Origin: an uncultured Methanosarcinales archaeon
Lineage (GTDB): Archaea > Nanobdellota > Nanobdellia > Woesearchaeales > JABIAG01
Assembly (NCBI GenBank): GCA_964544335.1
Contig: CAZJAJ010000001.1
Span: 29,199-93,198 of the forward strand
Direction of reading: 5' to 3'
DNA length: 64,000 nt
Part shown: positions 4,234-53,968 of the stretch, piece by piece
Numbering within the stretch: position 1 is the first letter of the stretch
How the letters are laid out: each line of letters begins with the position of its first letter
Notes under the pieces: model-generated
What the model saw: only the letters and a program-made list of their open reading frames with translations
Told to the model about the DNA's origin: nothing
Database searches by the model: none
Program-made: the position numbers and the translations under genes

Positions 4234-5856
4234 TTACCAAGAAATATGCCCATGAGATTTTTTATAGAATCGCGAGAGCAAATAACATTTTTGCATGGAG
4301 TGTTTCTTTGCTTTTGCAAAATCTCCTTTATTTGGCCCTCTTGTCTTAGGTGTAGAAGCAACACGAAATTTAAATGGTTCAACAAAGAGACCAAATCCTT
4401 TTACCACTTCTGTAAATGGACTAAGCACAGAATCATTACTTACTTTTTTTTGCATATCTTGTTGCTTGATCTTCACCACTTTCCCTGTTCGCTTATCTAT
4501 TTTGTATTTTGGTCCAGTGTAGCCAGGAACAACTGGATCAGGTTCATCTTCTTTTTCATCAAGATAGTGCATAATGTCAGCTTTCATAGAATCCATAGCC
4601 TCATGTATACCCATATCAATATCCTTGAGTAATTCCATGTCCTCTTCTTCTTTCATTTTAACATAGTTTTCAATTTGTTCTTTTGTCCATGCATACGACT
4701 TAAGATTCATTTCAAGTTTTCCCATCATTACGGATCGTCGCTCTTGCGAATTTGGAACGTACTCCATGTGCGGAAATGTTCTAAAACTAAAATTAACCAG
4801 CACCACAGAGTTTGCTGTGCCAATAGGACGTACTCCAAGATATTCTATTTCAATAAGTTGATTTTCAAATGCAGAAACAAGTTCTGGGCTTTTTGAAAGA
4901 CTGCTGTTTGGCGTGAGTGTTTTGATATTTTTCAAATAAGGTTTTACCCACTGCATATAGAGTTTAATATTATTGTAATGTTGTTTAAGATAGCTTTTAT
5001 ACAGCTTTCTATACGTCTTTAGTTGGTCATATGTTCTAAATTTCCAACTGTAATACTCAGATAATTTTCGCTCCAAGACATCTTTGAATGTTTTGTTTCC
5101 AAATTTTTGCTTTTGCATAAATGGATGAATGTTCTTTTTTACTTCCTCAAGCGTTTTACCAGGTACTCGTGTTTGAAAAAAGAGTGATGGTAGTGTAACA
5201 AAGTTAAAATTCTGCGCCATACCAAAAATACTTGCCGGATTTTTTGGTCCTCCTTCAACAAGATCTGCATATTGTCCTTTAAGTACAATTTCTCCATCTT
5301 GGGCAGTGTTTGGATCATCGCCAAAAGTTTGTTTATAATATCCTAATTTTTCATCAACAATGTTAAGATCACGAATAAGTTGGAACATAGTTTTAGTCAT
5401 CTCAGCAATAAAACGAAGATATTGTGCTGCTCGATCCTGTTGAATTGATAGACGTTGTGCAGAAACACCCCAGTACGTACTTAATTCAGATGCTGAAAAC
5501 ACATCAGATATCTTGATCATGTCTTTTGCGTTAAATCCATGATCGTGCATCATTTGGCCAAGGATCCAGTAATAACTCTCCTCAACACTGAGTTGATAAT
5601 TTTGATGCACTAAACGATAATTTCTGAGTGACTTAGGATACCCACTAAATTCTGGCTTATATCCTGCATTATTAAAATCAGATTGAAAATGCATGAACTC
5701 AGGATCACTAAAATCCTTTGCGTCAAAGACAAATGACTCGTCTTTTCGTAGCTTTTTTCTCTCTTGCACACTCATGTGACCAAATTTAGCCTTTCCTGCT
5801 GAGTTCAAGAAGCCATAATCAAAGAGGAGCTCGTGCGTAACCATGGGTATTTTCAA
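4234..5856 (-). CDS. large hypothetical protein (540 aa), no recognised domain
   Basis: Long uninterrupted ORF with coding-like composition. Confidence 0.4.
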   Translation of the reverse strand: MKIPMVTHELLFDYGFLNSAGKAKFGHMSVQERKKLRKDESFVFDAKDFSDPEFMHFQSDFNNAGYKPEFSGYPKSLRNYRLVHQNYQLSVEESYYWILGQMMHDHGFNAKDMIKISDVFSASELSTYWGVSAQRLSIQQDRAAQYLRFIAEMTKTMFQLIRDLNIVDEKLGYYKQTFGDDPNTAQDGEIVLKGQYADLVEGGPKNPASIFGMAQNFNFVTLPSLFFQTRVPGKTLEEVKKNIHPFMQKQKFGNKTFKDVLERKLSEYYSWKFRTYDQLKTYRKLYKSYLKQHYNNIKLYMQWVKPYLKNIKTLTPNSSLSKSPELVSAFENQLIEIEYLGVRPIGTANSVVLVNFSFRTFPHMEYVPNSQERRSVMMGKLEMNLKSYAWTKEQIENYVKMKEEEDMELLKDIDMGIHEAMDSMKADIMHYLDEKEDEPDPVVPGYTGPKYKIDKRTGKVVKIKQQDMQKKVSNDSVLSPFTEVVKGFGLFVEPFKFRVASTPKTRGPNKGDFAKAKKHSMQKCYLLSRFYKKSHGHISW

Positions 5857-15545: not shown

Positions 15546-18059
15546 TTATACGGTTGATACTTGGATGTTGGTAAAGTCTGTACCAGTTACTACAACTTCT
15601 TCACCACTTAGGGTGTAGTCATCATAGTTAGCTAGAACACGTGCAGCTCTTCTGGTATCCATTGCGCCGTACCCGTTAACGAGTAGAGCAACATTTTCTC
15701 CATATTCCTTAAGGGAAACAACTGCTGTGTTTTCTTCTGGTGCACCTTCTAGACAGTTACTTGCTGTAACGCCAAGGAACTCTGCAGCTTTAGCGTTAGC
15801 ACAAGGACCACCTACAACAATGGTGTTTTGACTTTCGAAACTTCCAACTTCACTTGCAAGCTTAGCTGTACCAACTTCGATCTTCTGAACGTTTACACTT
15901 TCAGCTGATTGAGCAGTTACAACGTTAGCACCTACAGGACTAATGAATACATTAGCATATAGTTCGTCACCAGGGAAGGTGAGAACTAGACTTCTCTTGT
16001 CTTCATCATCGTGTACAACTTTTGTACCGTAGTCGGAGTAGTATAACTGATCATCGTCGTTAGAGTCTGAAAAGTCTACTGAACCGTAGGTTGCATCACT
16101 AAATACAGGTGTTCGAACATTCAGTTCTTCATCATCACTGATATCTCTAGTAATGTTAAAGCTGATAGTTCCTCGGGAATCATCTGCACCACTACCGTCG
16201 GTATCACCGTCGCTTTCATCGAAAACAAATTTGAAGGTTGAGTTTCCGTCAATGATGGTGTTGTTGTTAGCACCATTATTTGTACCGTTTCTCTCAATAC
16301 TTAATAGACCTTCATACATGGTTTCCATGTCGTCTCCAAGATTGATGATGTCATCACCAGAATCACTGTGTGTAAAGTTCAGGGACTCGTGACCAATGGT
16401 TAAGTATACATTTGCACCACCAGCAGGTAGGTCTAATGCATCTACAGCACCATCAGGTGTAAAGTCTTCAGTCTTTTCTCCACCGTATGTGATATCTTTC
16501 AAGGTTGTTTCGTTGTCGTTCACATCAATGTCAGAGATTTCAATAACGTGTACTTCATCTCCTTCATTTACAAGGAATCGAGCGCCTTCACAATCTTGTA
16601 CATCACTACTTGCAGGAGCACAACTGTCACCTTCAAAGTAGTATTGTTCATCATCATCTGAATCTGTACCGAAGTAGATGTTATCGTTTGTTGCATCACA
16701 GCTTCCGTCACAGAAGAATGGTAGAACAATTTCTTTACCATCTGAGTTCATGAAGGTTACTGTAAAGTCATCTCCACTTACATCAGCAGTAACTACGTCT
16801 TCTTTAGCAACAAGGCTAGCAAAGGTAATTTCCCAATTTCCAAGAACAGGGTCTGCCCATGTGTCGCCAGGACCTAAGTAGATTTCATCTTCAGGTTCGT
16901 ACCAGATACTGAATTCTTCAAGTGCACCAGCACTACCAATGAATTCAACTTCTGAACCGTCAACTTCTTTACCGTTGATTTCTACTTCGTCACCTTCTTT
17001 TAAGGTAATTTCAGTTGCACCAAGGTTAACTTCACAAACATCGGTATCTTGAGCTTCACTGTGTACAGAGATAGCTTCAGTTACACCAACTTCAACACCA
17101 TTGATAGTTTCAGAACTACCTGTGTCAAGCCATTCTAGTGAACCATCAATTAAGATACCACACTTGTCTTCGTTTTCGTTTACATCAACGAGTTCAACTT
17201 CGTGTTCTTCACCACCGATAATTCGGGTAATTGGGTTATCTTGTTCAAGCCATACGGTTGTGTCACCAGCTTGTAGTTTTAGTTCACTAATTACACTGCT
17301 TGATAATTTTACATTAACAATAGTGTAGGTATTACCTTGGATATCGATCTTTGCAGTTTCGAAATCGTCTTCAGCAGTACTATCACTGGTTGAGTCGTAG
17401 TCAACTTCGTTGTCAAACTCAAGTGTATAATTGTACATCATAGCACTGTTGTCAGTAAAGAGATATAGACCACCATCTGGAGCGTCACTATCATCCTGAT
17501 CTAGCTGAAGTGTACCTGCAGCAGAACCCCAAGTAATTTCTTGGTCGTACTGTTCATCGTTGTCATTTGAACCTTCACTTTCGTCGAATACACCATCACC
17601 GAGAACGGTTGGTAATTCTGAGTTGTCAACATCGCCTTCGATACTTGCGAATGCTTCACCAATATTTAGGTCGTTACCTGAACTTCCTAGGCTTGAACCA
17701 TCGGAAATAGTTACAACAGCACCTGAACCGCTTGAAGCAGTTGTGGAACTGAATTGTAGACCAGTTGCAATATCAATAGCACCAAGAGTATCGGAACTAA
17801 TAGCGTTGTCACCTAATACGATTACACCGTTAAATACACCATCTTGAATTACAAGAGGACTTGGGTAATCACTCAAATCTGCAGCCACTGCACCCATCAC
17901 AGTTGCACCAAGCATTGATGCACCAAGACCGATTGCAGCAACCTTTTTGATTGCCTTTCTTACTTTCATTGTTTTAAACACCTCCGTGTTATGCTTCATG
18001 AATTTTTCATGAAACAAGTTGCGTCCACCTCTGAACGCACATATGTACCAACAGCACAT
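15546..18059 (-). CDS. S-layer protein (archaeal S_layer_N/S_layer_C type), highly acidic
   Basis: Signal peptide MKVRKAIKKVAAIGLGASMLGATVMGAVAA; LSDYPSPLV..SSDTLGAIDIATGL N-domain; C-terminal IVVGGPCANAKAAEFLGV; D/E-rich. The likely start is the internal MKVRK at about 17969. Confidence 0.7.
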   Translation of the reverse strand: MCCWYICAFRGGRNLFHEKFMKHNTEVFKTMKVRKAIKKVAAIGLGASMLGATVMGAVAADLSDYPSPLVIQDGVFNGVIVLGDNAISSDTLGAIDIATGLQFSSTTASSGSGAVVTISDGSSLGSSGNDLNIGEAFASIEGDVDNSELPTVLGDGVFDESEGSNDNDEQYDQEITWGSAAGTLQLDQDDSDAPDGGLYLFTDNSAMMYNYTLEFDNEVDYDSTSDSTAEDDFETAKIDIQGNTYTIVNVKLSSSVISELKLQAGDTTVWLEQDNPITRIIGGEEHEVELVDVNENEDKCGILIDGSLEWLDTGSSETINGVEVGVTEAISVHSEAQDTDVCEVNLGATEITLKEGDEVEINGKEVDGSEVEFIGSAGALEEFSIWYEPEDEIYLGPGDTWADPVLGNWEITFASLVAKEDVVTADVSGDDFTVTFMNSDGKEIVLPFFCDGSCDATNDNIYFGTDSDDDEQYYFEGDSCAPASSDVQDCEGARFLVNEGDEVHVIEISDIDVNDNETTLKDITYGGEKTEDFTPDGAVDALDLPAGGANVYLTIGHESLNFTHSDSGDDIINLGDDMETMYEGLLSIERNGTNNGANNNTIIDGNSTFKFVFDESDGDTDGSGADDSRGTISFNITRDISDDEELNVRTPVFSDATYGSVDFSDSNDDDQLYYSDYGTKVVHDDEDKRSLVLTFPGDELYANVFISPVGANVVTAQSAESVNVQKIEVGTAKLASEVGSFESQNTIVVGGPCANAKAAEFLGVTASNCLEGAPEENTAVVSLKEYGENVALLVNGYGAMDTRRAARVLANYDDYTLSGEEVVVTGTDFTNIQVSTV

Positions 18060-28899: not shown

Positions 28900-30159
28900 A
28901 TGGTAAAACCTGGAGATCTTGTTCGTGTAAAGACTGAAAATGATGTCTTTGAGGGGATATATATTGAAAAGCCAACTCTTCTTGGGAGCGACACCATTGT
29001 ACTTAAACTAGAACACGGATATAATATTGGGATTGATAAAAATAAGATCAAAGATATTAAGCTCCTTAAGGAAGGGACAAAGAAAAACGTAAAACACAGT
29101 CCACTTCCGGTTGATGAAAAACTTCCTACAGTACTTATTCTTTCTACGGGAGGGACTATTTCTTCTAAAGTAGATTATACTACGGGCGGTGTTCTTGCAG
29201 AGTATGATGCACGAGACTTTGTTGAGATGTGTCCTGAACTTACATCTATTGCAAACATTCAAGCAGAACGAGTCATGCAAATTATGTCAGAAGATATCAG
29301 CACTGCTGATTGGAGCGCAATTGCTGAGGTGATTGCTGATAAAATCCAGAAAGTGGATGGTATTGTGATGACTATGGGAACAGATACACTTGCATATACT
29401 GCAGCTGCCATGTCATTTGCACTTACACTTGGAAAACCTGTTGTGATTACTGGAGCTCAGCGAAGTATTGATCGTGGTTCTTCTGATGCGTTTTTCAATC
29501 TTATTTGTGCTGTAAAAGCTGCTGCAGAATGGGATGGTGCAGAAGTAGTTACGTGTATGCACGGGACATCTGCTGATGATCACTGTTTACTACTTAGAGG
29601 AACAAAGGTAAGGAAAATGCATGCTTCACGAAGAGATGCATTTAGACCTATTAATACACGACCTCTTGCCAAGGTAACACCTACAAGTATTACTCCTGGA
29701 AATATTCCATATCATAAACGAAGTAAACAAAAATGTAGTGCTTCAAGTGTATTTTCTGCAGATGTAGCACTGGTGTATGCACATCCGGGAATGAAACCAG
29801 ACGTACTTGATACCTACAGATCATACAAAGGGATTATTATTGCAGGTACAGGTTTTGGACATGTACCTATTCAATTATATGATAGAATTAAAGAGCTTGT
29901 TGATACGGGCGTGTTTGTTGGACTCACTACGCAGTGTTTGTATGGTGCAACCTCTGCAACAGTATACAGTCCACTACGACGACTTTCTCTTGAAATAGGT
30001 GTTACGTATCTTGGAGATATGCTTCCTGAAACAGCATTTGCTAAGCTCTCTTGGGCTGCAGGAAAATCAACTACAGACGAAGAAATTAAAAAGATCATGA
30101 CTGATACTATGAGACATGAGTCAAATGATCGCCAAGATTTCAATGACTTTTTGAACTAA
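28900..30159 (+). CDS. gatD: Glu-tRNA(Gln) amidotransferase subunit D
   Basis: N-terminal GDLVRV domain then asparaginase-like ILSTGGTISS and TMGTDTLAYTAAA. Confidence 0.85.
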   Translation: MVKPGDLVRVKTENDVFEGIYIEKPTLLGSDTIVLKLEHGYNIGIDKNKIKDIKLLKEGTKKNVKHSPLPVDEKLPTVLILSTGGTISSKVDYTTGGVLAEYDARDFVEMCPELTSIANIQAERVMQIMSEDISTADWSAIAEVIADKIQKVDGIVMTMGTDTLAYTAAAMSFALTLGKPVVITGAQRSIDRGSSDAFFNLICAVKAAAEWDGAEVVTCMHGTSADDHCLLLRGTKVRKMHASRRDAFRPINTRPLAKVTPTSITPGNIPYHKRSKQKCSASSVFSADVALVYAHPGMKPDVLDTYRSYKGIIIAGTGFGHVPIQLYDRIKELVDTGVFVGLTTQCLYGATSATVYSPLRRLSLEIGVTYLGDMLPETAFAKLSWAAGKSTTDEEIKKIMTDTMRHESNDRQDFNDFLN

Positions 30160-30160
30160 A

Positions 30161-31258
30161 ATGAAAGCTCAATGGTTTATTCGCGTATTTTTAGTAGGAT
30201 ATCATGTACTACTTTTTACATTACTACCTACCTACATCATTCTTTTTGGAGTACCCAGTATTAGTATTGTACTGTGGACCGTTTTCTTGTTTGCAGCATG
30301 TAATTTATCCATTACTACAGGATATCACAGGTTGTATGCACATAGAAGTTATAATGCATCAAAAATCGTTGAGGTTCCACTCTTATTTTTCTCCACATTA
30401 AGTCTGCAGGGAAGCGCTATTGCATGGAGTGCTGACCACAGAACGCACCACAGGCATGTTGATACAGATAAAGACCCATATAATATTGAGCGTGGGTTTT
30501 GGTATGCACACATGGGATGGTTATTTGAAGACCGTGTTGTTGATATTACCAATGTAAAGGATTTACAACAGCAAAAAATGCTCATGATACAGCACAAGTA
30601 CTACATTCTTCTTGCAACACTTGCAAATGTAGTAGTTACAGTTGGGCTTGGAATGATTTTAGGAGAAGTATTTGCCGCTATTGTCTTTATCTTCTTGCTG
30701 CGCCTATTTTTAACGCATCACACCACGTTTTTCATTAATTCACTTGCGCACACATGGGGCTCTAGGCCATATTCAAGAGAGCATAGTGCAGTCAATAACT
30801 TTGTTATTTCTTTGCTTACATTTGGAGAAGGGTATCATAACTATCATCACACCTTTGCAGGAGATTATAGAAATGGCGTTAGATGGTATCAATATGACCC
30901 TACTAAGCTGCTTATTTGGACCATGAGTAAATGTGGTCTTGCACAAGATCTTAAACGAAGCAATAGATATTCTGCAACACTACGATTAATCAACGAAGAC
31001 AGAAAAGAGATGCTCAATGAAATGAGGTTGAAAGGGATTGCTCGCTATAAGGCAATTGAGTCTGACATACAGCATAAATATAAGATGCTCATAGAAGATC
31101 TTCAGGGTTTGCATCGTCAAGTACAGGCGTATAAAGATGCTGCTCAACTAAAAAAGGATGAGAAACGATTGCTTAAAGCACAAATCAGAAGTCAACGTCT
31201 TCGTGTGAAAAAAAGTTTCAAAGCGTGGTCACTTTTGTGCAAACATGTGTTTGGATAA
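30161..31258 (+). CDS. acyl-CoA (stearoyl-CoA type, delta-9) fatty acid desaturase, membrane
   Basis: Three His boxes HRLYAHR, HRTHHRH and HNYHHTF with TM helices; coiled-coil C-terminal extension. Confidence 0.8.
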   Translation: MKAQWFIRVFLVGYHVLLFTLLPTYIILFGVPSISIVLWTVFLFAACNLSITTGYHRLYAHRSYNASKIVEVPLLFFSTLSLQGSAIAWSADHRTHHRHVDTDKDPYNIERGFWYAHMGWLFEDRVVDITNVKDLQQQKMLMIQHKYYILLATLANVVVTVGLGMILGEVFAAIVFIFLLRLFLTHHTTFFINSLAHTWGSRPYSREHSAVNNFVISLLTFGEGYHNYHHTFAGDYRNGVRWYQYDPTKLLIWTMSKCGLAQDLKRSNRYSATLRLINEDRKEMLNEMRLKGIARYKAIESDIQHKYKMLIEDLQGLHRQVQAYKDAAQLKKDEKRLLKAQIRSQRLRVKKSFKAWSLLCKHVFG

Positions 31259-40004: not shown

Positions 40005-41174
40005 TCAATAAAAGAATCTTCCGTTAGGAGTAGCATTTGGAGTTGGCTCCTTGATTTTGTGAGCATATGCTTTTACAACATCTTCAAATTCTTTAAAATC
40101 AGTAGTTCTAAAATGTTGTAATGCTTCTTCTAAATCTCCTGTAATTACATAAGGTTCTCCTGTGAAAATAGAATTTTTACAATCTTGTTTTCTTCCCATA
40201 GATGTAAAGATAAAAGGAGCTTCTTCAAAGCCTGGAGCAGATGAAGTCCTATATTCGGCTACATTAACAGAACCACTTCCTCTGAACATTGGTTTTTGCA
40301 TATCAAATTTACTCATGTGCCCTAAAAAATTATTTGAAAAGTATAACATTGGCTTTGTAGATGTTGTGTATGTTCCTTGCATATACAATGAACCATCATC
40401 ATCATCTTTAGCAACACCTAATAGATAAACTTCCTCTTTTGATCCAACATAAACAAAATCTCCATGTTCTAAATCTTTAGTTGCTCTTGTCAACCAATCA
40501 TGTGCAACCCACATATTAAAACTACCATATGAAGGTTTTCTTGAATCACCGTTGCTTTTAAATCTATTAATCAATCCAGTGATCATGTTTCCTTTAGTAA
40601 CCCATTTAGGCATTTCTAAATCAGTACCTCTATTCTCAAGAAATGGAACTACATTTCTTTCGAAATATCCAGGTCTAGTAATCTCTTTTAATTTATCAAC
40701 CAATAAACTTTCATCAGCAATAACAGTTACACCATCAACTGTTTTTTCAACACGACCATCTCCAAATTTGTTTGCTAGAGTTAAATATAGGTCGGTGTGA
40801 CTTTCAGCAGAAGGCAGATACAAACCAAATTCCTGATCAAAATCAAAGTCAAGTCTGTGAGTTCCAAGAATTTCTATTCTTGCTTTAGCAGTAATTCTTT
40901 TTGAGGGATCTTTATGAGTATATGGATCGCCTTCTTGTGGCATCAATATATTCCCTATACACATTATGCTTGTATGTCTATTGGCTCGAACTCTCAATGG
41001 ATCGCTAGAACCAATTTCAGCACCTTCATATTTTAACAGAGAAACAGAATCTCCAAACTGAATCAATATATTTTGTCCTTTTTCTAGAGGTTCAACTACT
41101 TGTTTTACTGGAAGTAGCATATTATCTAAAGATTCAACTTCATTACTATTTGTAGTAGCTAATTGTTCCCCCAT
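40005..41174 (-). CDS. hypothetical protein (389 aa), sole gene of cassette 2
   Basis: Long ORF, no recognised motif. Confidence 0.4.
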   Translation of the reverse strand: MGEQLATTNSNEVESLDNMLLPVKQVVEPLEKGQNILIQFGDSVSLLKYEGAEIGSSDPLRVRANRHTSIMCIGNILMPQEGDPYTHKDPSKRITAKARIEILGTHRLDFDFDQEFGLYLPSAESHTDLYLTLANKFGDGRVEKTVDGVTVIADESLLVDKLKEITRPGYFERNVVPFLENRGTDLEMPKWVTKGNMITGLINRFKSNGDSRKPSYGSFNMWVAHDWLTRATKDLEHGDFVYVGSKEEVYLLGVAKDDDDGSLYMQGTYTTSTKPMLYFSNNFLGHMSKFDMQKPMFRGSGSVNVAEYRTSSAPGFEEAPFIFTSMGRKQDCKNSIFTGEPYVITGDLEEALQHFRTTDFKEFEDVVKAYAHKIKEPTPNATPNGRFFY

Positions 41175-41211: not shown

Positions 41212-41414
41212 AAAAAGAAAAAAAGCGATCGTTACTTCGCTCCTTTTTGCCTGCAACACCCAAAGTATTCGCCTAAGGATGCTTAGGTCTCGTTTCTGCT
41301 TACAACGTCTAAAAGTCCAAAATTCCTTGATTTCAGACTTTTTACTCTTTGGTGGTTTAGTGACGCTTTTTTGAAAATCCGTCATAACTACTACACAATG
41401 ACGAAACATTTATA
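41212..41414. repeat. R2 copy b, ~203-bp repeat module
   Basis: See R2 copy a; ends with the core variant GAAACATTTATA. Confidence 0.85.
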
Positions 41415-42438
41415 TACTCACCCAGCTACACAGGCCATAATGACCGAAAAAAAAGAGTCAAAAATAGTAACATTTCTAGGAGCAGCAGCTCTTGCTACAT
41501 ACATTACAGGAGCACTGTATCACGCCATCAGATCAGAGCCAGATACAAAGCCTAGCAGAATTGAACATATTGTAGAAGAACCTAAAGAAAAAAAGGTAGA
41601 GAATATAGAGGTCTCAGTACCAAAAGCATACGAAGCAGTAAAACATCGTGTAGTTAATGGAAAGATTCCAGTTACAGTAAAGTATGGATATAACAAAGTT
41701 GACCTCCAAATCCCACTTGAAGAATATCTTCAATCAGTTGCTATTTCAACTGCCGAAGGTCCAATGAATGAACACTATGAACAAGTTATTCAGCACGTGT
41801 TTGCTAGTAACTACGATAGTCTTGATCCCCTAGTAAAAGAAATTAAGGGAAGATACTATAGGCGAGACGGATTCGAAGATGCCTCACGCATGTTCTTTAA
41901 TGGCAATAATATTAGATATGTGCTTGACCAAGACAATAGATACAATCAAGACGGTAAAAGAGTACTACGAATGGAACTTCCAAAAACACCTATTCAAACA
42001 CTTGTTGATGGTACTGGAGATTGTGAAGATTTCTCACTTGCACTAGGATATACTCTACACAGAACAGGAAAAGACGTATGTATTGCAACCATGTATAGAA
42101 CAGATGAGAATGGTGAAGTAAAGGGACATACAATCATGGGTCTTGAAGAAGATGCACTAGGTATTGAATACGATGAACTACTTGATCAACTCAATGCCAT
42201 TGGAAGCAATCGAGCAAGAACAAAGAGATATGTTAATTCACACGTTACTGCGCAAACAAGCGATGGACCAATTACCTACAGACTTATTGAACCACAGAGA
42301 GAAAATAAGAAGTGGGAAAGTGATACCATTGGCGACTATGTACTGCAAAGTATCTACATTCCAAAACGAAATGAATGGATAAGGGCAGACCACCTTACTC
42401 GAAAAGACGTTGTGAGTGAACACCGTAAAAACTATTAG
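41371..42438 (+). CDS. transglutaminase-like cysteine protease superfamily protein, membrane-anchored
   Basis: GTGDCEDFSLALGYTLHRTGKDVCIATMY matches the transglutaminase-like core (G.C..F......R..GIpaR); TM helix near the N-terminus. The likely start is the internal MTEKKES at about 41443, outside R2. Confidence 0.6.
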   Translation: MKIRHNYYTMTKHLYTHPATQAIMTEKKESKIVTFLGAAALATYITGALYHAIRSEPDTKPSRIEHIVEEPKEKKVENIEVSVPKAYEAVKHRVVNGKIPVTVKYGYNKVDLQIPLEEYLQSVAISTAEGPMNEHYEQVIQHVFASNYDSLDPLVKEIKGRYYRRDGFEDASRMFFNGNNIRYVLDQDNRYNQDGKRVLRMELPKTPIQTLVDGTGDCEDFSLALGYTLHRTGKDVCIATMYRTDENGEVKGHTIMGLEEDALGIEYDELLDQLNAIGSNRARTKRYVNSHVTAQTSDGPITYRLIEPQRENKKWESDTIGDYVLQSIYIPKRNEWIRADHLTRKDVVSEHRKNY

Positions 42439-48477: not shown

Positions 48478-49056
48478 ATGAAGATCTATTCATGGCTTGT
48501 TGCACTGAGTTTATTACTGCTTATTGCAAACTTCACATTTGATAACACGCAAGTGCAAGATTTTCTCATAACCCATCACTCTAACTCTGATAATGCCATT
48601 GAAGAAAATAGAGCAATATTGAATTTTTTACAAACAGGCGAACTTACTGTAACTCTTACGGTTGAAGAATATGAACATATGCAAGATGTACGAAATGTGA
48701 AAAAGACATTTGCAATGATATCCATAGCCATTATTGTATGCACGCTCCTACTATACTGGTTTAAACGACCAGAGATTAATTTTACACCCGTGGTAAACGC
48801 TACTGCAATTATTATTGCGCTCATTGCAGTACTTCCGGGTAAAATATTTGAACTATTCCATGAAGTAGTATTTCATCAAGGTAACTACACCTTTGCAACA
48901 GATTCATTTCTAATAACGCTTTATCCAGGAGAATATTTCTTTGCACTTACCGCATGGATTTTAGGTGTAACATTATTACTCTTAATCAGCGTAGAATGTG
49001 CACGAAAGCATTACTGGCGACGTAATTTTCTAGTAAGACTATTTATCAAAGAATGA
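48478..49056 (+). CDS. membrane protein, hypothetical
   Basis: Four TM helices. Confidence 0.35.
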   Translation: MKIYSWLVALSLLLLIANFTFDNTQVQDFLITHHSNSDNAIEENRAILNFLQTGELTVTLTVEEYEHMQDVRNVKKTFAMISIAIIVCTLLLYWFKRPEINFTPVVNATAIIIALIAVLPGKIFELFHEVVFHQGNYTFATDSFLITLYPGEYFFALTAWILGVTLLLLISVECARKHYWRRNFLVRLFIKE

Positions 49057-49783: not shown

Positions 49784-51823
49784 ATGTGCGGCATTATTGG
49801 CATTTTCAATAGTAAGAACGTTAGGAAGCAATTAGCTACTGCTCTTGAGGTGATGCAAGCACGAGGACAAGATGCATCCAAGGTTTACACAAAGGGATCA
49901 TGTGGTATTGGACATAACTTACATGCCATTGTCAATTACACACCACAGCCGCTTGATAATAGACTTGTTACGAATTGTGAAATATACAATTGGGAAGCAC
50001 TCAATAAGAAACACAACCTTAATGCAAAAAATGATGCAGATGCACTACTCAAGATCCTTGAAAAGAAAGGAACAAAAGGACTTGATGAAGCCGATGGAGT
50101 GTATGCACTCTGCTTATGGGATAAGGATACTGTAATTCTTGCACGAGATGTTCTTGGAGTAAAGCCATTATGGTATACACATAGCGATGTGTTTGCGTGT
50201 GCATCTGAAAAGAAGGCACTTGAAGCAGCAGGCTTTCTTGACATTCATGAATTAAACCCAAGAATGATTTTGACCTACAACGTCAAAACAAATGAGATCA
50301 CACTCAAAGAACGATCCTTCTTTACACTTGAAAAGACACACAAAGATAAAAAGAAAACAAAAGAGCTTCTTGAAGCTGCGATCAAAAAGAGAATTCCAAA
50401 AGGACAAAAAATTGGACTCTTATTTTCAGGCGGTGTTGATTCTACGTACATTGCAACGATTCTAAAAAATATGAACATTCCATTTACCTGCTACACGGCA
50501 GGAATCAAAGAAGAAGGGATGAAAGAAGCAGATGATGTGGTGTATGCAAAAAAAGCTGCAGAATTACTTGATCTTCATCTCAAAATTTCATCAATCCCCA
50601 TTAGCAAAGTGCCAACGTATCTAAAAACCATTGTTCCACTCATTGAAGATTCTAATGTGGTAAAGGTTGGTGTTGCACTGCCGTTTTATGTGGCATGTGA
50701 AGAGGCAAAAAAAGATGGTGTGCGGGTGATGTTTTCCGGCCTTGGCTCTGAAGAAATATTTGCGGGGTATGAGCGGCACATCAAATCATCAGACATTAAT
50801 GAAGAGTGTTTATTTGGATTAAAACAAATGTATCAACGAGATCTGTATCGGGACGATGTGCTTACGATGCACCACTCTATTGAACTACGATTGCCATTTC
50901 TTGACAAGGCACTCGTGCAAACTGCACTTAATCTTGATCCAAAATTAAAAATCACCAAAGAAAATAATAAAGCAATTCTTAGAACCATTGCACAAGAAGC
51001 AGGAACTCCAGAGATTATTGCACAACGAAAAAAGAAAGCGGCGCAGTATGGGTCTAAGTTTGATAAGGCGCTTGCAAAGCTGGCAAAGAAAAAAGGACTC
51101 ACCAAATCTGCGTATCTGCGAACCTTCTACCCAAAAGCAAATTTGCGTGTGGGTGCACTGTTTTCATCAGGAAAGGATTCAACGTATGCACTCTATATTA
51201 TGCAGAAGATGAATTATGAAGTTTCATGTTTAATTACACTTGAGTCTAAGAACTCATCTAGTTACATGTTCCACACACCAAATATTGAACTTACCAAATT
51301 ACAATCACAAGCACTTGGCATTCCACGCATGGTGCAAACAACAGAAGGAAAAAAGGAAGAAGAGCTTGCAGATCTTGAAGCTGCTATTAGAGAAGCAAAA
51401 AAGAAGTATAAGCTGGATGCTATTGTGACGGGTGCTATTTTTTCAACATACCAGAGAAATAGGATTGAAACTATTTGTGACAAGTTAGGATTAAGTGTCT
51501 TTGCACCGTTGTGGCATAAAAACCAGGAAGAGGAAATGCGAGAACTTATTTCTGCTGGGTTTGAAGTGATGCTCTCATCCATTGCTGCATATGGACTTAC
51601 AAAAGAGTGGCTTGGAAAGGTACTTACACTCAACGATGTGGACAAACTTGCACAACTTGAGAAAAAATACAAGATCAATGTTGCAGGCGAGGGAGGAGAA
51701 TTTGAATCCCTGGTCATCAACGGACCTAATTTTTCAAAGAAAATAGACATTACCAAATCAAAGGTAGTGATGGAAGATGAAAATACAGGAAATTTCATCA
51801 TAGAGGAGGCACAGTTAGTATGA
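49784..51823 (+). CDS. asnB: asparagine synthetase (glutamine-hydrolysing) fused to a C-terminal DUF71/MJ0570 (Dph6-like) PP-loop ATPase domain
   Basis: N-terminal MCGIIGIF (Ntn amidotransferase); SGGVDS PP-loop; second PP-loop domain ALFSSGKDSTYALYIM...AIVTGAIFSTYQRNRIE resembling diphthine-ammonia ligase/MJ0570. Confidence 0.75.
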   Translation: MCGIIGIFNSKNVRKQLATALEVMQARGQDASKVYTKGSCGIGHNLHAIVNYTPQPLDNRLVTNCEIYNWEALNKKHNLNAKNDADALLKILEKKGTKGLDEADGVYALCLWDKDTVILARDVLGVKPLWYTHSDVFACASEKKALEAAGFLDIHELNPRMILTYNVKTNEITLKERSFFTLEKTHKDKKKTKELLEAAIKKRIPKGQKIGLLFSGGVDSTYIATILKNMNIPFTCYTAGIKEEGMKEADDVVYAKKAAELLDLHLKISSIPISKVPTYLKTIVPLIEDSNVVKVGVALPFYVACEEAKKDGVRVMFSGLGSEEIFAGYERHIKSSDINEECLFGLKQMYQRDLYRDDVLTMHHSIELRLPFLDKALVQTALNLDPKLKITKENNKAILRTIAQEAGTPEIIAQRKKKAAQYGSKFDKALAKLAKKKGLTKSAYLRTFYPKANLRVGALFSSGKDSTYALYIMQKMNYEVSCLITLESKNSSSYMFHTPNIELTKLQSQALGIPRMVQTTEGKKEEELADLEAAIREAKKKYKLDAIVTGAIFSTYQRNRIETICDKLGLSVFAPLWHKNQEEEMRELISAGFEVMLSSIAAYGLTKEWLGKVLTLNDVDKLAQLEKKYKINVAGEGGEFESLVINGPNFSKKIDITKSKVVMEDENTGNFIIEEAQLV

Positions 51824-52005
51824 ATGATCACTTTGAACACCTTCTGGCACGTAAGGATCAGCAGATTGCAGAGCTTGAAGAGAAAAACGACACCCTTCTT
51901 GGTACAATATTTAAAAAAGAACAAGAAAACGCTGAATTAAAGCGTAAATTAGAGGATTTACAGCGGGCTTTTCTGAGATCTGAAGACCACATAGAGCGCC
52001 AATAG
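51820..52005 (+). CDS. small coiled-coil protein
   Basis: ORF; ATGA overlap with asnB. Confidence 0.25.
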   Translation: MNDHFEHLLARKDQQIAELEEKNDTLLGTIFKKEQENAELKRKLEDLQRAFLRSEDHIERQ

Positions 52006-52043: not shown

Positions 52044-52532
52044 ATGCGAAGGCTCAATTTATATCAAACAATAGATATTCTTTCACGAAATGGTTTTGAC
52101 CATAGTGATGTAGGACAAATATATGTAGCTGGTGTAGATGCTGCACACGATAGTTTTCTTTCAAAAAAATGTCCACACGGATTTGAATCAGGCGATTCAC
52201 TACTTCGAAGAACAGCACGAGAATTTCAAAGAAATGTGAGAGGGTACTTTTACGAGGTTAGAACTCAATGTGTTATTAAGAAAAAAGAACGAGCAGAAAT
52301 CATACTATCTATTCCAGAAATATTCCCCTTCATTACTGAATCAGATGATGAAGTGTTTATTGAAGGTACACTAAGAGATTTGCTTTCTGAAAATAATCCT
52401 GAAGTTATGGAATGTATTGGTTGTCGGATTACTGAGGGTGCAAAAGAATATGCTGATGTAACAAGAAGAACGGATCACTATATTAGAGAATATGAAGCTA
52501 TTCATAATGCATTACGGAAGGAACAACAATGA
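52044..52532 (+). CDS. hypothetical protein
   Basis: ORF; ATGA overlap with the downstream PhoH2 gene. Confidence 0.3.
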   Translation: MRRLNLYQTIDILSRNGFDHSDVGQIYVAGVDAAHDSFLSKKCPHGFESGDSLLRRTAREFQRNVRGYFYEVRTQCVIKKKERAEIILSIPEIFPFITESDDEVFIEGTLRDLLSENNPEVMECIGCRITEGAKEYADVTRRTDHYIREYEAIHNALRKEQQ

Positions 52533-53968
52533 CCACTTTTGAGAAGGAGCAATATTTTGTTCCAGATACAAATATTTTTCTTTCAGACCCTACTGCAATA
52601 GATCAATTTAAACCACAGGATAAGAATATAAGAAATACAGTTGTACTTCCGATGCAAGTTATTGCAGAAATTGATGAGAAGAAAAATGAAAGCCACAGTG
52701 ATCGAGGATTTGCTGCACGAGAAACATTAAGACTTCTTAAAGAAAGAATAAGAGAATCGGGATCTAATTTACTTCAAGGAGTTGATTTAGAACCAAATTA
52801 CAGAATAATTGCTTCTACAAACCTTTCACAAGGAACAGATGTAATAGATGCACACGATAACACGCCAGATAGTAGAATCATACAAGTCGTCAGTGATTTG
52901 CAAAGAGCGGGACATAAAACAACTTTTGTAACCAATGATACTGGTGCATATGTTATTGCAAATGCACTAGGTCTTCACACTGAATCATGGAGAGAAAAAG
53001 AAGTAGAAGCTACTGTAGAACCCTACAAAGGTTGGAGAGCATTAGAAATTGATCCTAATTTATTCTTTGATAAAGTACACCACAATCGTGGAGAAGTTGA
53101 AGTAAAACATCTTCCTATGGACGGATTAGAAGGACTACTTCCTAATGAGTTCGTTATTTTCACAGGAAATAGAGTTGAAACAACAGCACTACGGCACATA
53201 GATGGAAGACTTCACCGACTTTATCACTATGAAGGGAGACAATCTAAAGTAAAAGCAAAAAATGTACTTCAACAATGTTACATGGATGTGCTAAGAGATG
53301 AAGATATTGATGTGGTATTTTGTATGGGTGAGGCAGGAACAGCTAAAACATACCTTGCTACAGATGCTGCAATTGAACTCTGTTTTACTGATGAAGTTGC
53401 ACGAAATGCAGGTAAAAGACCAATTGCACACCATACCGGAGATGAATTAAGAGAATTTGCTAAACTACTTATCACAAGACCTGCTGTAAATGAAAATAAT
53501 AGAGATGTAGTAGATCTTGGTGCAATTCCTGGTGACCTCACAGATAAAATGATGCCGTGGGTTGCACCCATTTATGATCAAATTGAACAACTTGCGGAAA
53601 CATATAAGATTGATGCTGATATGATTGAGGATTTAAAAAAAGAAGGGCTACTTGAAATTCTTGTTACTACTCATATGCGTGGTAGAAGTCTTACAAATGC
53701 ATATTGGGTCTTAGACGAAGGACAAAATACATCTTTTTTCCAGCTAAGAACTGCAATGACACGTGTTGGTGAAGGGACAAAAATGGTTCTTACTGGAGAT
53801 CCAAAACAATGTGATCTTAAAGGAATTGCTGATCGCAAAAATAATAGTCTTGTTATTGCAAACGAACGATGGAAATCATACAAAGGTGCAGCAACCATAT
53901 ACTTCCAAGGAAGTGAGTATGTTGTACGTTCAAGACTTGCACAAGAAGCAGTTAATCGTATGCAATAA
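52529..53968 (+). CDS. PhoH2: PIN-domain plus PhoH-like ATPase
   Basis: N-terminal PIN (FVPDTNIFL...VVLPMQVIAEID) and Walker A FCMGEAGTAKTYLA. Confidence 0.8.
   Translation: MTTFEKEQYFVPDTNIFLSDPTAIDQFKPQDKNIRNTVVLPMQVIAEIDEKKNESHSDRGFAARETLRLLKERIRESGSNLLQGVDLEPNYRIIASTNLSQGTDVIDAHDNTPDSRIIQVVSDLQRAGHKTTFVTNDTGAYVIANALGLHTESWREKEVEATVEPYKGWRALEIDPNLFFDKVHHNRGEVEVKHLPMDGLEGLLPNEFVIFTGNRVETTALRHIDGRLHRLYHYEGRQSKVKAKNVLQQCYMDVLRDEDIDVVFCMGEAGTAKTYLATDAAIELCFTDEVARNAGKRPIAHHTGDELREFAKLLITRPAVNENNRDVVDLGAIPGDLTDKMMPWVAPIYDQIEQLAETYKIDADMIEDLKKEGLLEILVTTHMRGRSLTNAYWVLDEGQNTSFFQLRTAMTRVGEGTKMVLTGDPKQCDLKGIADRKNNSLVIANERWKSYKGAATIYFQGSEYVVRSRLAQEAVNRMQ

Follow-up and report, generated by a model that had tools for sequence, protein, structure and literature searches.

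The closest described relatives of the protein examined here are the archaeal and eukaryotic Dph6 enzymes and a small set of fusions reported in 2012. Archaeal Dph6, the diphthine--ammonia ligase of the DUF71 family, is represented by the solved structures of PF0828 (3RJZ, 3RK0, 3RK1) and PH1257 (2D13), stand-alone proteins of about 220-237 amino acids (aa) whose diphthine--ammonia ligase activity awaits experimental confirmation (PMC8305020); the function of Dph6 in yeast is experimentally established (PMC3585130). Some lineages have no dph genes, among them Korarchaeota, most Asgard archaea and parabasalids (bioRxiv 10.1101/262600). De Crécy-Lagard et al. (2012, Biol Direct 7:32; PMC3541065) described fusions in Methanohalophilus mahii, Methanosalsum zhilinae and ‘Ca. 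Nanosalinarum sp. J07AB56’ in which a COG0367/AsnB protein, consisting of a class-II glutamine amidotransferase (GAT-II) and an Asn_Synthase ATP-pyrophosphatase loop (PP-loop) domain, lies N-terminal to DUF71. Here we describe a 679-aa fusion protein of identical domain order and architecture, encoded in a 64,000-nucleotide stretch of DNA (the window) taken from contig CAZJAJ010000001.1 of an uncultured archaeon (assembly GCA_964544335.1, positions 29,199 to 93,198, forward strand).

The 2012 study proposed that the glutaminase gives ammonia to both PP-loop domains, and a reviewer of that paper asked which PP-loop uses the ammonia (PMC3541065). The fusion architecture has been known since that work, which treated the N-terminal part as AsnB and placed the fusion in ‘a few Archaea’, whereas here more than 2,000 protein clusters have this architecture, its N-terminal part does not carry the AsnB catalytic site, and relatives without the glutaminase occur. 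What is new here is the breadth of the fusion among DPANN archaea, the missing asparagine-synthetase site and the assignment of the N-terminal module to the ASNSD1/YML096W clade. Eukaryotic Dph6 (yeast YLR143W) also joins DUF71 to a proposed ammonia-supply partner (PMC3541065). That partner is unrelated, being two RidA/YjgF domains at the C-terminus instead of a GATase and a PP-loop domain at the N-terminus, and the function of YLR143W has been shown by experiment, whereas the archaeal fusion is known from sequence.

Results

The gene is one open reading frame (ORF) with an ATG start, and its product opens M-C-G-I-I-G. The Pfam matches are GATase_6/7 at residues 30-147, Asn_synthase at 192-332 with a second stretch, and Diphthami_syn_2 at 455-676 (E 9.7e-66). 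Pfam, NCBIfam and alignment agree with the original prediction that a glutaminase, an SGGVDS module and an SGKDS module are carried in one chain, and the Asn_synthase and Diphthami_syn_2 families expected from it were both found. An identical protein is present on an independent Logan contig. Conservation was assessed over the best 120 of the 2,124 homologous clusters (the 120 relatives), every one of which is 654-740 aa long with the same Pfam set and 52-81% identity; the named relatives in this set are Woesearchaeota or Nanoarchaeota. In a genome scan, the fusion was found as a single ORF in eight species-representative genomes, covering Nanoarchaeota, Woesearchaeota, Iainarchaeota, Nanohaloarchaeota (‘Ca. 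Nanosalina’) and two further archaeal metagenome-assembled genomes (MAGs), with the nanohaloarchaeal fusions recovered as loci L006 and L007 (loci are referred to by L numbers). Taken with the published cases (PMC3541065), the fusion is kept across four DPANN phyla-level groups and also in Methanosarcinales. From these sequences it appears to be mostly a DPANN protein, and the common form in Woesearchaeota/Nanoarchaeota and Iainarchaeota.

The N-terminal half had been described in the original prediction as a complete AsnB, and that description did not survive a comparison of residues. The query was aligned to E. coli AsnB and residue states were tabulated over the 120 relatives. The equivalents of the AsnB N-terminal nucleophile (Ntn) Cys, Arg30, Asn74, Glu76, Asp98, PP-loop, Ser346/Gly347, Asp384, Arg387 and Lys449 are invariant; in query numbering, the invariant glutaminase residues are Cys2 (the nucleophile once Met is removed), Arg27 (R30), Asn64 (N74), Glu66 and Asp84 (D98). 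Other parts of the AsnB site are replaced. Arg49 of AsnB is Leu46 in 119/120 relatives, Gly75 is Cys in 116/120 and the catalytic Glu348 is Leu320 in 118/120, and across the family Thr322/Arg325 (TTxR) are lost with VKxG in their place and Lys376 is Gly (Gly345 in the query). In addition, Asp351 is Glu, the C-terminal motif reads RKKxAAQYGS against RQKEQFSDGV in AsnB, and the final ~100 residues of AsnB are missing from the module. The canonical residues are found in 17/17 genuine AsnB sequences compared (16 bacterial from the same genome scan, plus E. coli AsnB), with Glu at 348 in all of them and conservative exceptions confined to single sequences (Thr322 to Ser, Lys376 to Arg). The curated models give a mixed picture, with the module just reaching the general TIGR01536 model (asn_synth_AEB; 269.2 bits against a cutoff of 267.1) and falling well below the AsnB model NF006949 (237.1 against 499).

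The Thr and Arg of the D(V/I)TT(I/V)RA motif are required for beta-aspartyl-AMP formation, and to our knowledge every characterised class-II amidotransferase uses Arg49 to bind the alpha-carboxylate of glutamine. In human ASNS, the mutants E364A and E364Q (at the equivalent of Glu348) and D367A are inactive, T336I nearly abolishes activity, and Arg-48, the equivalent of Arg49, is positioned to contact glutamine (Zhu et al. 2019, PMC6748925). Given the loss of Glu348, TTxR and Lys376, and the inactivity of the corresponding mutants of human ASNS, residues 1-445 are predicted not to be an asparagine synthetase. The replaced site does not look like a relic. Columns at least 90% conserved make up 29% of the glutaminase, 39% of the middle domain and 29% of the Dph6 domain; the middle domain, being the most strongly conserved of the three, is thus not in decay. 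All three domains are under purifying selection, and the middle domain is best described as an intact frame for nucleotide binding that carries a different pocket, itself strongly conserved.

In order to place this module, yeast and human sequences were used as search bait only, with the analysis itself carried out on database sequences alone. The yeast bait retrieved S. cerevisiae YML096W (P0271) and its family, and the human bait retrieved mammalian proteins named ASNSD1 at source (e.g. P0392 and P0488). A residue-state table of 40 archaeal, 17 AsnB, 20 yeast-family and 16 mammalian sequences shows that position 348 is hydrophobic in both eukaryotic families (Leu in the YML096W family, Ile in mammalian ASNSD1), that both have Leu at 49, and that both have lost the TTxR Arg and Lys376, as in the archaeal clade. 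All three groups have R(D/N)LxRDD and KxA(A/I/M)Q(Y/F)G(S/A) in common, and the ‘H.LH’ motif recurs in mammalian ASNSD1 as H-V-L-H. The YML096W family scores 166 bits with an archaeal-clade profile and 72 with an AsnB profile (130 and 103 in reverse), and ASNSD1 scores 143 and 38 bits (64 and 23 in reverse). Neighbour-joining on 223 middle-domain columns separates the archaeal clade, YML096W and ASNSD1 from bacterial AsnB, E. coli AsnB and human ASNS in 100/100 bootstrap replicates; the tree is built on distances and has long eukaryotic branches, and the relationship may be one of orthology or of older paralogy. The AsnB/ASNS group thus excludes the fusion module by both profile scores and tree, although E. 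coli AsnB (1CT9) and human ASNS (6GQ3) have the same Ntn-glutaminase plus PP-loop synthetase fold (TM 0.79), and on these sequence comparisons the N-terminal module is assigned to the ASNSD1/YML096W clade. The eukaryotic members differ in being stand-alone proteins of 525-643 aa with long insertions and Gly, not Cys, at position 75, and no Dph6 fusion was present among the 240 relatives listed. NCBIfam holds no clade-specific model, and the stand-alone relatives match only the generic TIGR01536.

The C-terminal part resembles MJ0570/diphthine-ammonia ligase, as had been suggested. The NCBIfam equivalog TIGR03679 (Dph6_archaeal) matches residues 458-676 with 280.9 bits against a cutoff of 197.3, and residues 455-679 match 3rjz (E 1e-57) and 2d13 (E 4e-55) in the Protein Data Bank (PDB), share the fold of PF0828/PH1257 (TM 0.93-0.96, root-mean-square deviation 1.1-1.4 A) and are 40-45% identical to these two proteins, with PP-loop and signature in common; here, however, Dph6 is the C-terminal third of a much longer chain. 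Nine residues of PF0828 (S44, Y45, E78, Y103, Q104, A149, E183, E186 and E188) separate Dph6 from the B12-salvage DUF71 subfamily (PMC3541065), and the Dph6-subfamily signature residues are all present in the query as S493, Y494, E527, Y556, Q557, A602, E636, E639 and E641. Seven of them are invariant in the 120 relatives, with Y, F or W at Y494 and 92% Ala at A602. The S, G, K and D of the second PP-loop are invariant as well, whereas position 2, a Ser in the query, varies among Gly, Ser and Thr in the relatives. The domain thus has a PP-loop of its own, conserved in the 120 relatives, and is not an ordinary AsnB extension; the ~250 aa first estimated for it come down to about 225 aa. No further Dph6-like or AsnB copy is encoded within the window. 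On sequence and fold, the C-terminal domain is securely predicted to be a genuine archaeal Dph6 of the MJ0570/PF0828 family, and its reaction, in which diphthine on EF-2 is adenylated and amidated, would follow from family membership.

A sequence and fold search of the PDB found no single solved chain spanning both halves of the protein; there are two separate parents only, residues 1-445 corresponding to AsnB/ASNS (TM 0.79 on 1ct9) and the remainder to Dph6. An AlphaFold2 model built with the 120 relatives has a mean predicted local distance difference test score (pLDDT) of 92.4 and a predicted TM-score (pTM) of 0.89, with a linker pLDDT of about 90. The spacing from S424 to S461 is 34-38 residues in 120/120 relatives. 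The model predicts that the whole chain is one compact body, not beads on a string.

Searching exhaustively with residues 1-445 (phmmer) returned 697 representatives at E <= 1e-30. These include proteins of ~440-500 aa that combine glutaminase and middle domain and end at the linker motif where Dph6 starts, middle-only proteins of ~260-310 aa, and proteins that combine the middle domain with Dph6. The stand-alone relatives terminate at ‘K..YL..L’. At eight loci the middle domain is encoded alone, as a protein of 280-315 aa with PP-loop, SGLGSEE and AAQYGS, in MAGs of Woesearchaeota, Methanosarcinales and Thermoplasmatota, and neither a glutaminase nor Dph6 was found within 8 kb of it. More distant stand-alone relatives, with Gln at 348, occur in Methanobacteria, Nitrososphaera, ANME-1 and Bathyarchaeia. 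One fusion, at locus L040, resembles an intermediate in glutaminase loss.

Table 1. Coordinates of the fusion gene, its domains and motifs in the window, and of related genes at other archaeal loci
Feature	Coordinates	Strand	Basis
Whole gene: 679-aa GATase-II + ASNSD1-like PP-loop domain + Dph6	49784..51823 (including stop codon)	+	Pfam, NCBIfam, homologue comparison
Residues 1-185: class-II (Ntn) glutamine amidotransferase domain	49784..50338	+	Pfam GATase_6/7
H44-N-L46-H47: clade motif ‘H.LH’ where AsnB has ‘HERL’	49913..49924	+	Alignment
Residues 186-436: AsnB-fold PP-loop ATP-pyrophosphatase domain, ASNSD1/YML096W clade	50339..51091	+	Pfam Asn_synthase
First PP-loop S215-G-G-V-D-S220: SGGxDS invariant	50426..50443	+	Alignment
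N291-V-V-K-V-G-V297 where AsnB has ‘DVTTIRA’; Lys294 invariant	50654..50674	+	Alignment
S318-G-L320-G-S-E-E324 where AsnB has ‘SGEGSDE’	50735..50755	+	Alignment
R415-K-K417-K-A-A-Q-Y-G-S424: Lys417 = AsnB Lys449; ‘AAQYGS’ clade signature against AsnB ‘EQFSDG’	51026..51055	+	Alignment
Residues 437-454: short linker ‘K.AYLR.F...N’	51092..51145	+	Fixed length in relatives
Residues 455-679: archaeal Dph6 (diphthine--ammonia ligase, DUF71/PF01902) domain	51146..51820	+	TIGR03679, structure matches
Second PP-loop S461-S-G-K-D-S466	51164..51181	+	Alignment
E636-G-G-E639-F-E641: Dph6-subfamily ‘EGGEFE’ motif (PF0828 E183, E186, E188)	51689..51706	+	Alignment, PMC3541065
DRG-type GTPase loci	L001 1361-2458; L017 8766-9857; L006, L007, L015, L018, L022
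Middle-only loci	L015 2988-3830; L017 7911-8774; L018, L019, L022, L024, L025, L059

Genomic context was compared over 33 archaeal loci. In the window, DnaK/DnaJ lie upstream of the fusion gene, the genes downstream encode a PIN-PhoH protein, ZPR1 and MetRS, and no dph2, dph5 or EF-2 gene was found in the window or nearby in the loci examined. The sole recurrent neighbour is a DRG-type GTPase (MMR_HSR1 + MMR_HSR1_Xtn + TGS), which lies a few kb from the fusion or from a middle-only gene in 7 DPANN loci; this recurrence may point to a connection with translation or may simply be synteny. At the methanobacterial loci L009 (8182-8679) and L011 (3087-4613), the distant stand-alone relative, an SGQGADE variant, has an ACT-domain protein after it, and in L011 a homoserine dehydrogenase as well. 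With this aspartate-family context, the methanobacterial sub-clade may have a different, metabolic role. Overall, gene context does not discriminate between the readings of the fusion weighed below.

A 61-aa ORF (51820-52005, +) begins within the stop codon of the fusion gene through an ATGA overlap. Its product appears rich in charged residues and coiled-coil-like, has zero Pfam family matches, and is predicted by gene calling on the independent contig L081 too (2490-2675). Further downstream, a 479-aa PIN_4 + PhoH-like ATPase fusion (52529-53968, +) is preceded, with a 4-nucleotide overlap, by a 162-aa ORF without a family match, perhaps forming a two-gene unit (window 52044-53968, +). Upstream lies the gene for GatD (GatD_N + asparaginase), a subunit of the archaeal Glu-tRNA(Gln) amidotransferase, and after a single base comes that of a 365-aa membrane protein of the fatty-acid-desaturase family (28900-31258, +), a family that is unusual in archaea and an odd partner for GatD; at the related locus L002, ~0.8 kb downstream of the fusion, there is a gene whose product by eye opens like GatD. 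A membrane protein at 48478-49056 (+) has a Pfam match (E 5e-10) to Lit, the lipoprotein intramolecular transacylases known from Firmicutes. Three ORFs of 536, 389 and 346 aa (4234-5844, -; 40005-41174, -; 41398-42438, +) have no Pfam match at E <= 0.001, and an 837-aa protein (15546-18059) has a weak S-layer match only. With a GC content of about 38% and genes for GatD, ZPR1, an S-layer protein, MetRS and DnaK/DnaJ, the window looks like that of a DPANN archaeon.

Discussion

The reading that we put forward, and to which we give about an even chance, is that this protein is a glutamine-dependent diphthamide synthetase in one rigid three-domain chain. The Dph6 domain would adenylate the diphthine carboxylate on EF-2 and amidate it to diphthamide, with the N-terminal module making that amidation depend on glutamine or another amide donor. 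Cys2 would release ammonia, which would travel through the remodelled middle domain, where Leu stands in for the catalytic Glu, to the Dph6 site, and by binding ATP the middle domain may serve as a gate or a coupling between the halves. An ammonia-donor role is favoured because the nucleophile and oxyanion residues are invariant and the domains are predicted to be rigidly packed, and because a change from Glu to Leu would fit a former active site turned passage. The logic of ammonia supply parallels, by analogy, the proposal made for the RidA domains on eukaryotic Dph6 (PMC3541065). That ammonia is transferred, which substrate donates it and what the ATP site of the middle domain does are inferred from these features; channelling of ammonia to Dph6, suggested in the original prediction and already proposed in 2012 (PMC3541065), is plausible from the sequence.

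Several observations weigh against a glutamine-dependent diphthamide synthetase. Intact ORFs for middle domain plus Dph6 occur in L016 (Methanosarcinales) and L027 (Woesearchaeota), with a stop codon in frame immediately before each and no glutaminase found up to 8 kb away, and in L040 (7806-9641) the N-domain of a 611-aa fusion is without the Cys and most glutaminase motifs while its middle and Dph6 domains are intact. Dph6 therefore does not appear to need a fused glutaminase; its constant partner is the second PP-loop domain, not the glutaminase, and channelling from glutaminase to Dph6 is not the whole reason for the fusion. The change of Arg49 to Leu suggests that free glutamine may not be the donor. 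That the middle domain is the most conserved of the three and has a complete PP-loop, Lys449, Asp384 and Arg387 suggests that it is itself catalytic and more than a tunnel. Finally, the module is widespread as stand-alone proteins, eukaryotes included, and the searchable literature contains no paper tying ASNSD1 or YML096W to diphthamide or DPH6.

The strongest competing explanation, which we consider possible but doubtful, is that the middle domain acts independently as an amidotransferase or synthetase for a second carboxylate, with the glutaminase serving the middle domain and not Dph6. It might then act on a small molecule, on the translation machinery or on a further group of EF-2, and the fusion to Dph6 would then reflect co-localisation or a shared macromolecular substrate, not the sharing of ammonia. 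Consistent with this, the equivalents of SGGxDS, Ser346/Gly347, Lys449, Asp384 and Arg387 are invariant in the domain with the highest conservation of the three, and a distinct conserved site (Lys294, Leu320, E323-E324, RDLYRDD and AAQYGS) is found instead of decay of the AsnB site. Proteins with glutaminase plus middle domain, or the middle domain only, stand independently in many archaea and in eukaryotes, fusions of the middle domain with Dph6 do without the glutaminase, and the gene adjoins a ribosome-associated GTPase of the DRG type in the 7 DPANN loci. AsnB-fold enzymes can also act on peptide carboxylates, and lasso-peptide cyclase models match weakly. However, the gene neighbourhoods yield no candidate substrate, diphthamide has one amide only, and a reaction in common is the simplest explanation for repeated fusion specifically to Dph6.

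It is improbable that the middle domain is instead a non-catalytic structural partner, forming a pseudo-heterodimer of two PP-loop folds that aids EF-2 binding or Dph6 stability, with nucleotide bound for folding or regulation only and the glutaminase an optional accessory. The pairing of the PP-loop domains does outlast glutaminase loss in L016, L027 and L040, the model is compact and confident with a linker of fixed length, and the catalytic Glu is gone. Against such a scaffold stand the invariance of all ATP-binding residues, a conserved pocket (294, 320-324, 353-358 and 417-424) that exceeds what a scaffold needs, and the presence of stand-alone forms in loci without a nearby Dph6.

A bifunctional protein, in which a glutamine-dependent asparagine synthetase and Dph6 carry out two amidations on one glutaminase, is very unlikely. 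The narrow pass on TIGR01536, the AsnB fold, the conservation of Cys1, Asn74, Asp98, the PP-loop, Asp384, Arg387 and Lys449, and the ACT-domain protein and homoserine dehydrogenase beside methanobacterial relatives are what could be cited for it. These are set against the family-wide replacement of Glu348, Thr322/Arg325, Lys376 and Arg49, with inactive human ASNS mutants as counterparts, the shortfall on NF006949, and the grouping of the module with ASNSD1/YML096W and not AsnB/ASNS. Yeast asn1 asn2 mutants are inviable without asparagine despite having YML096W, and modellers have taken YML096W out of that reaction (PMC3023687); because YML096W fails to replace ASN1/ASN2, members of this clade probably do not make asparagine. 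That the fusion is an artefact, in which an assembly error, a sequencing error or a frameshift merged two neighbouring genes, is almost certainly wrong, as no evidence was found in its favour and it is ruled out by the independent contig, the uniform homologues, the fixed linker and the single ORFs in eight species-representative genomes.

The clade assignment extends the question beyond archaea. The function of ASNSD1 is only "predicted by similarity" (PMC9140057). With the recurrent Dph6 fusion taken as a Rosetta stone, we propose a link between the ASNSD1 family and Dph6, in which the family would work with Dph6 on EF-2, as an ammonia donor or in a second ATP-dependent step; we regard this as a speculative proposal that is rather unlikely to hold.

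For annotation, many members of the family are named "diphthine--ammonia ligase" by NCBI and some are named "asparagine synthase" by JGI. Under the latter name, genome-reduced DPANN archaea would be credited in error with making asparagine, a reaction for which the protein does not have the catalytic residues. For mechanism, the ammonia source of the last step of archaeal diphthamide synthesis is at issue, and here one soluble polypeptide carries all of the candidate parts. The assignment of the N-terminal module to the ASNSD1/YML096W clade ties a family conserved from archaea to humans to a specific pathway hypothesis which, if true, would provide a first function for a conserved human and yeast protein and a missing component of the diphthamide pathway.

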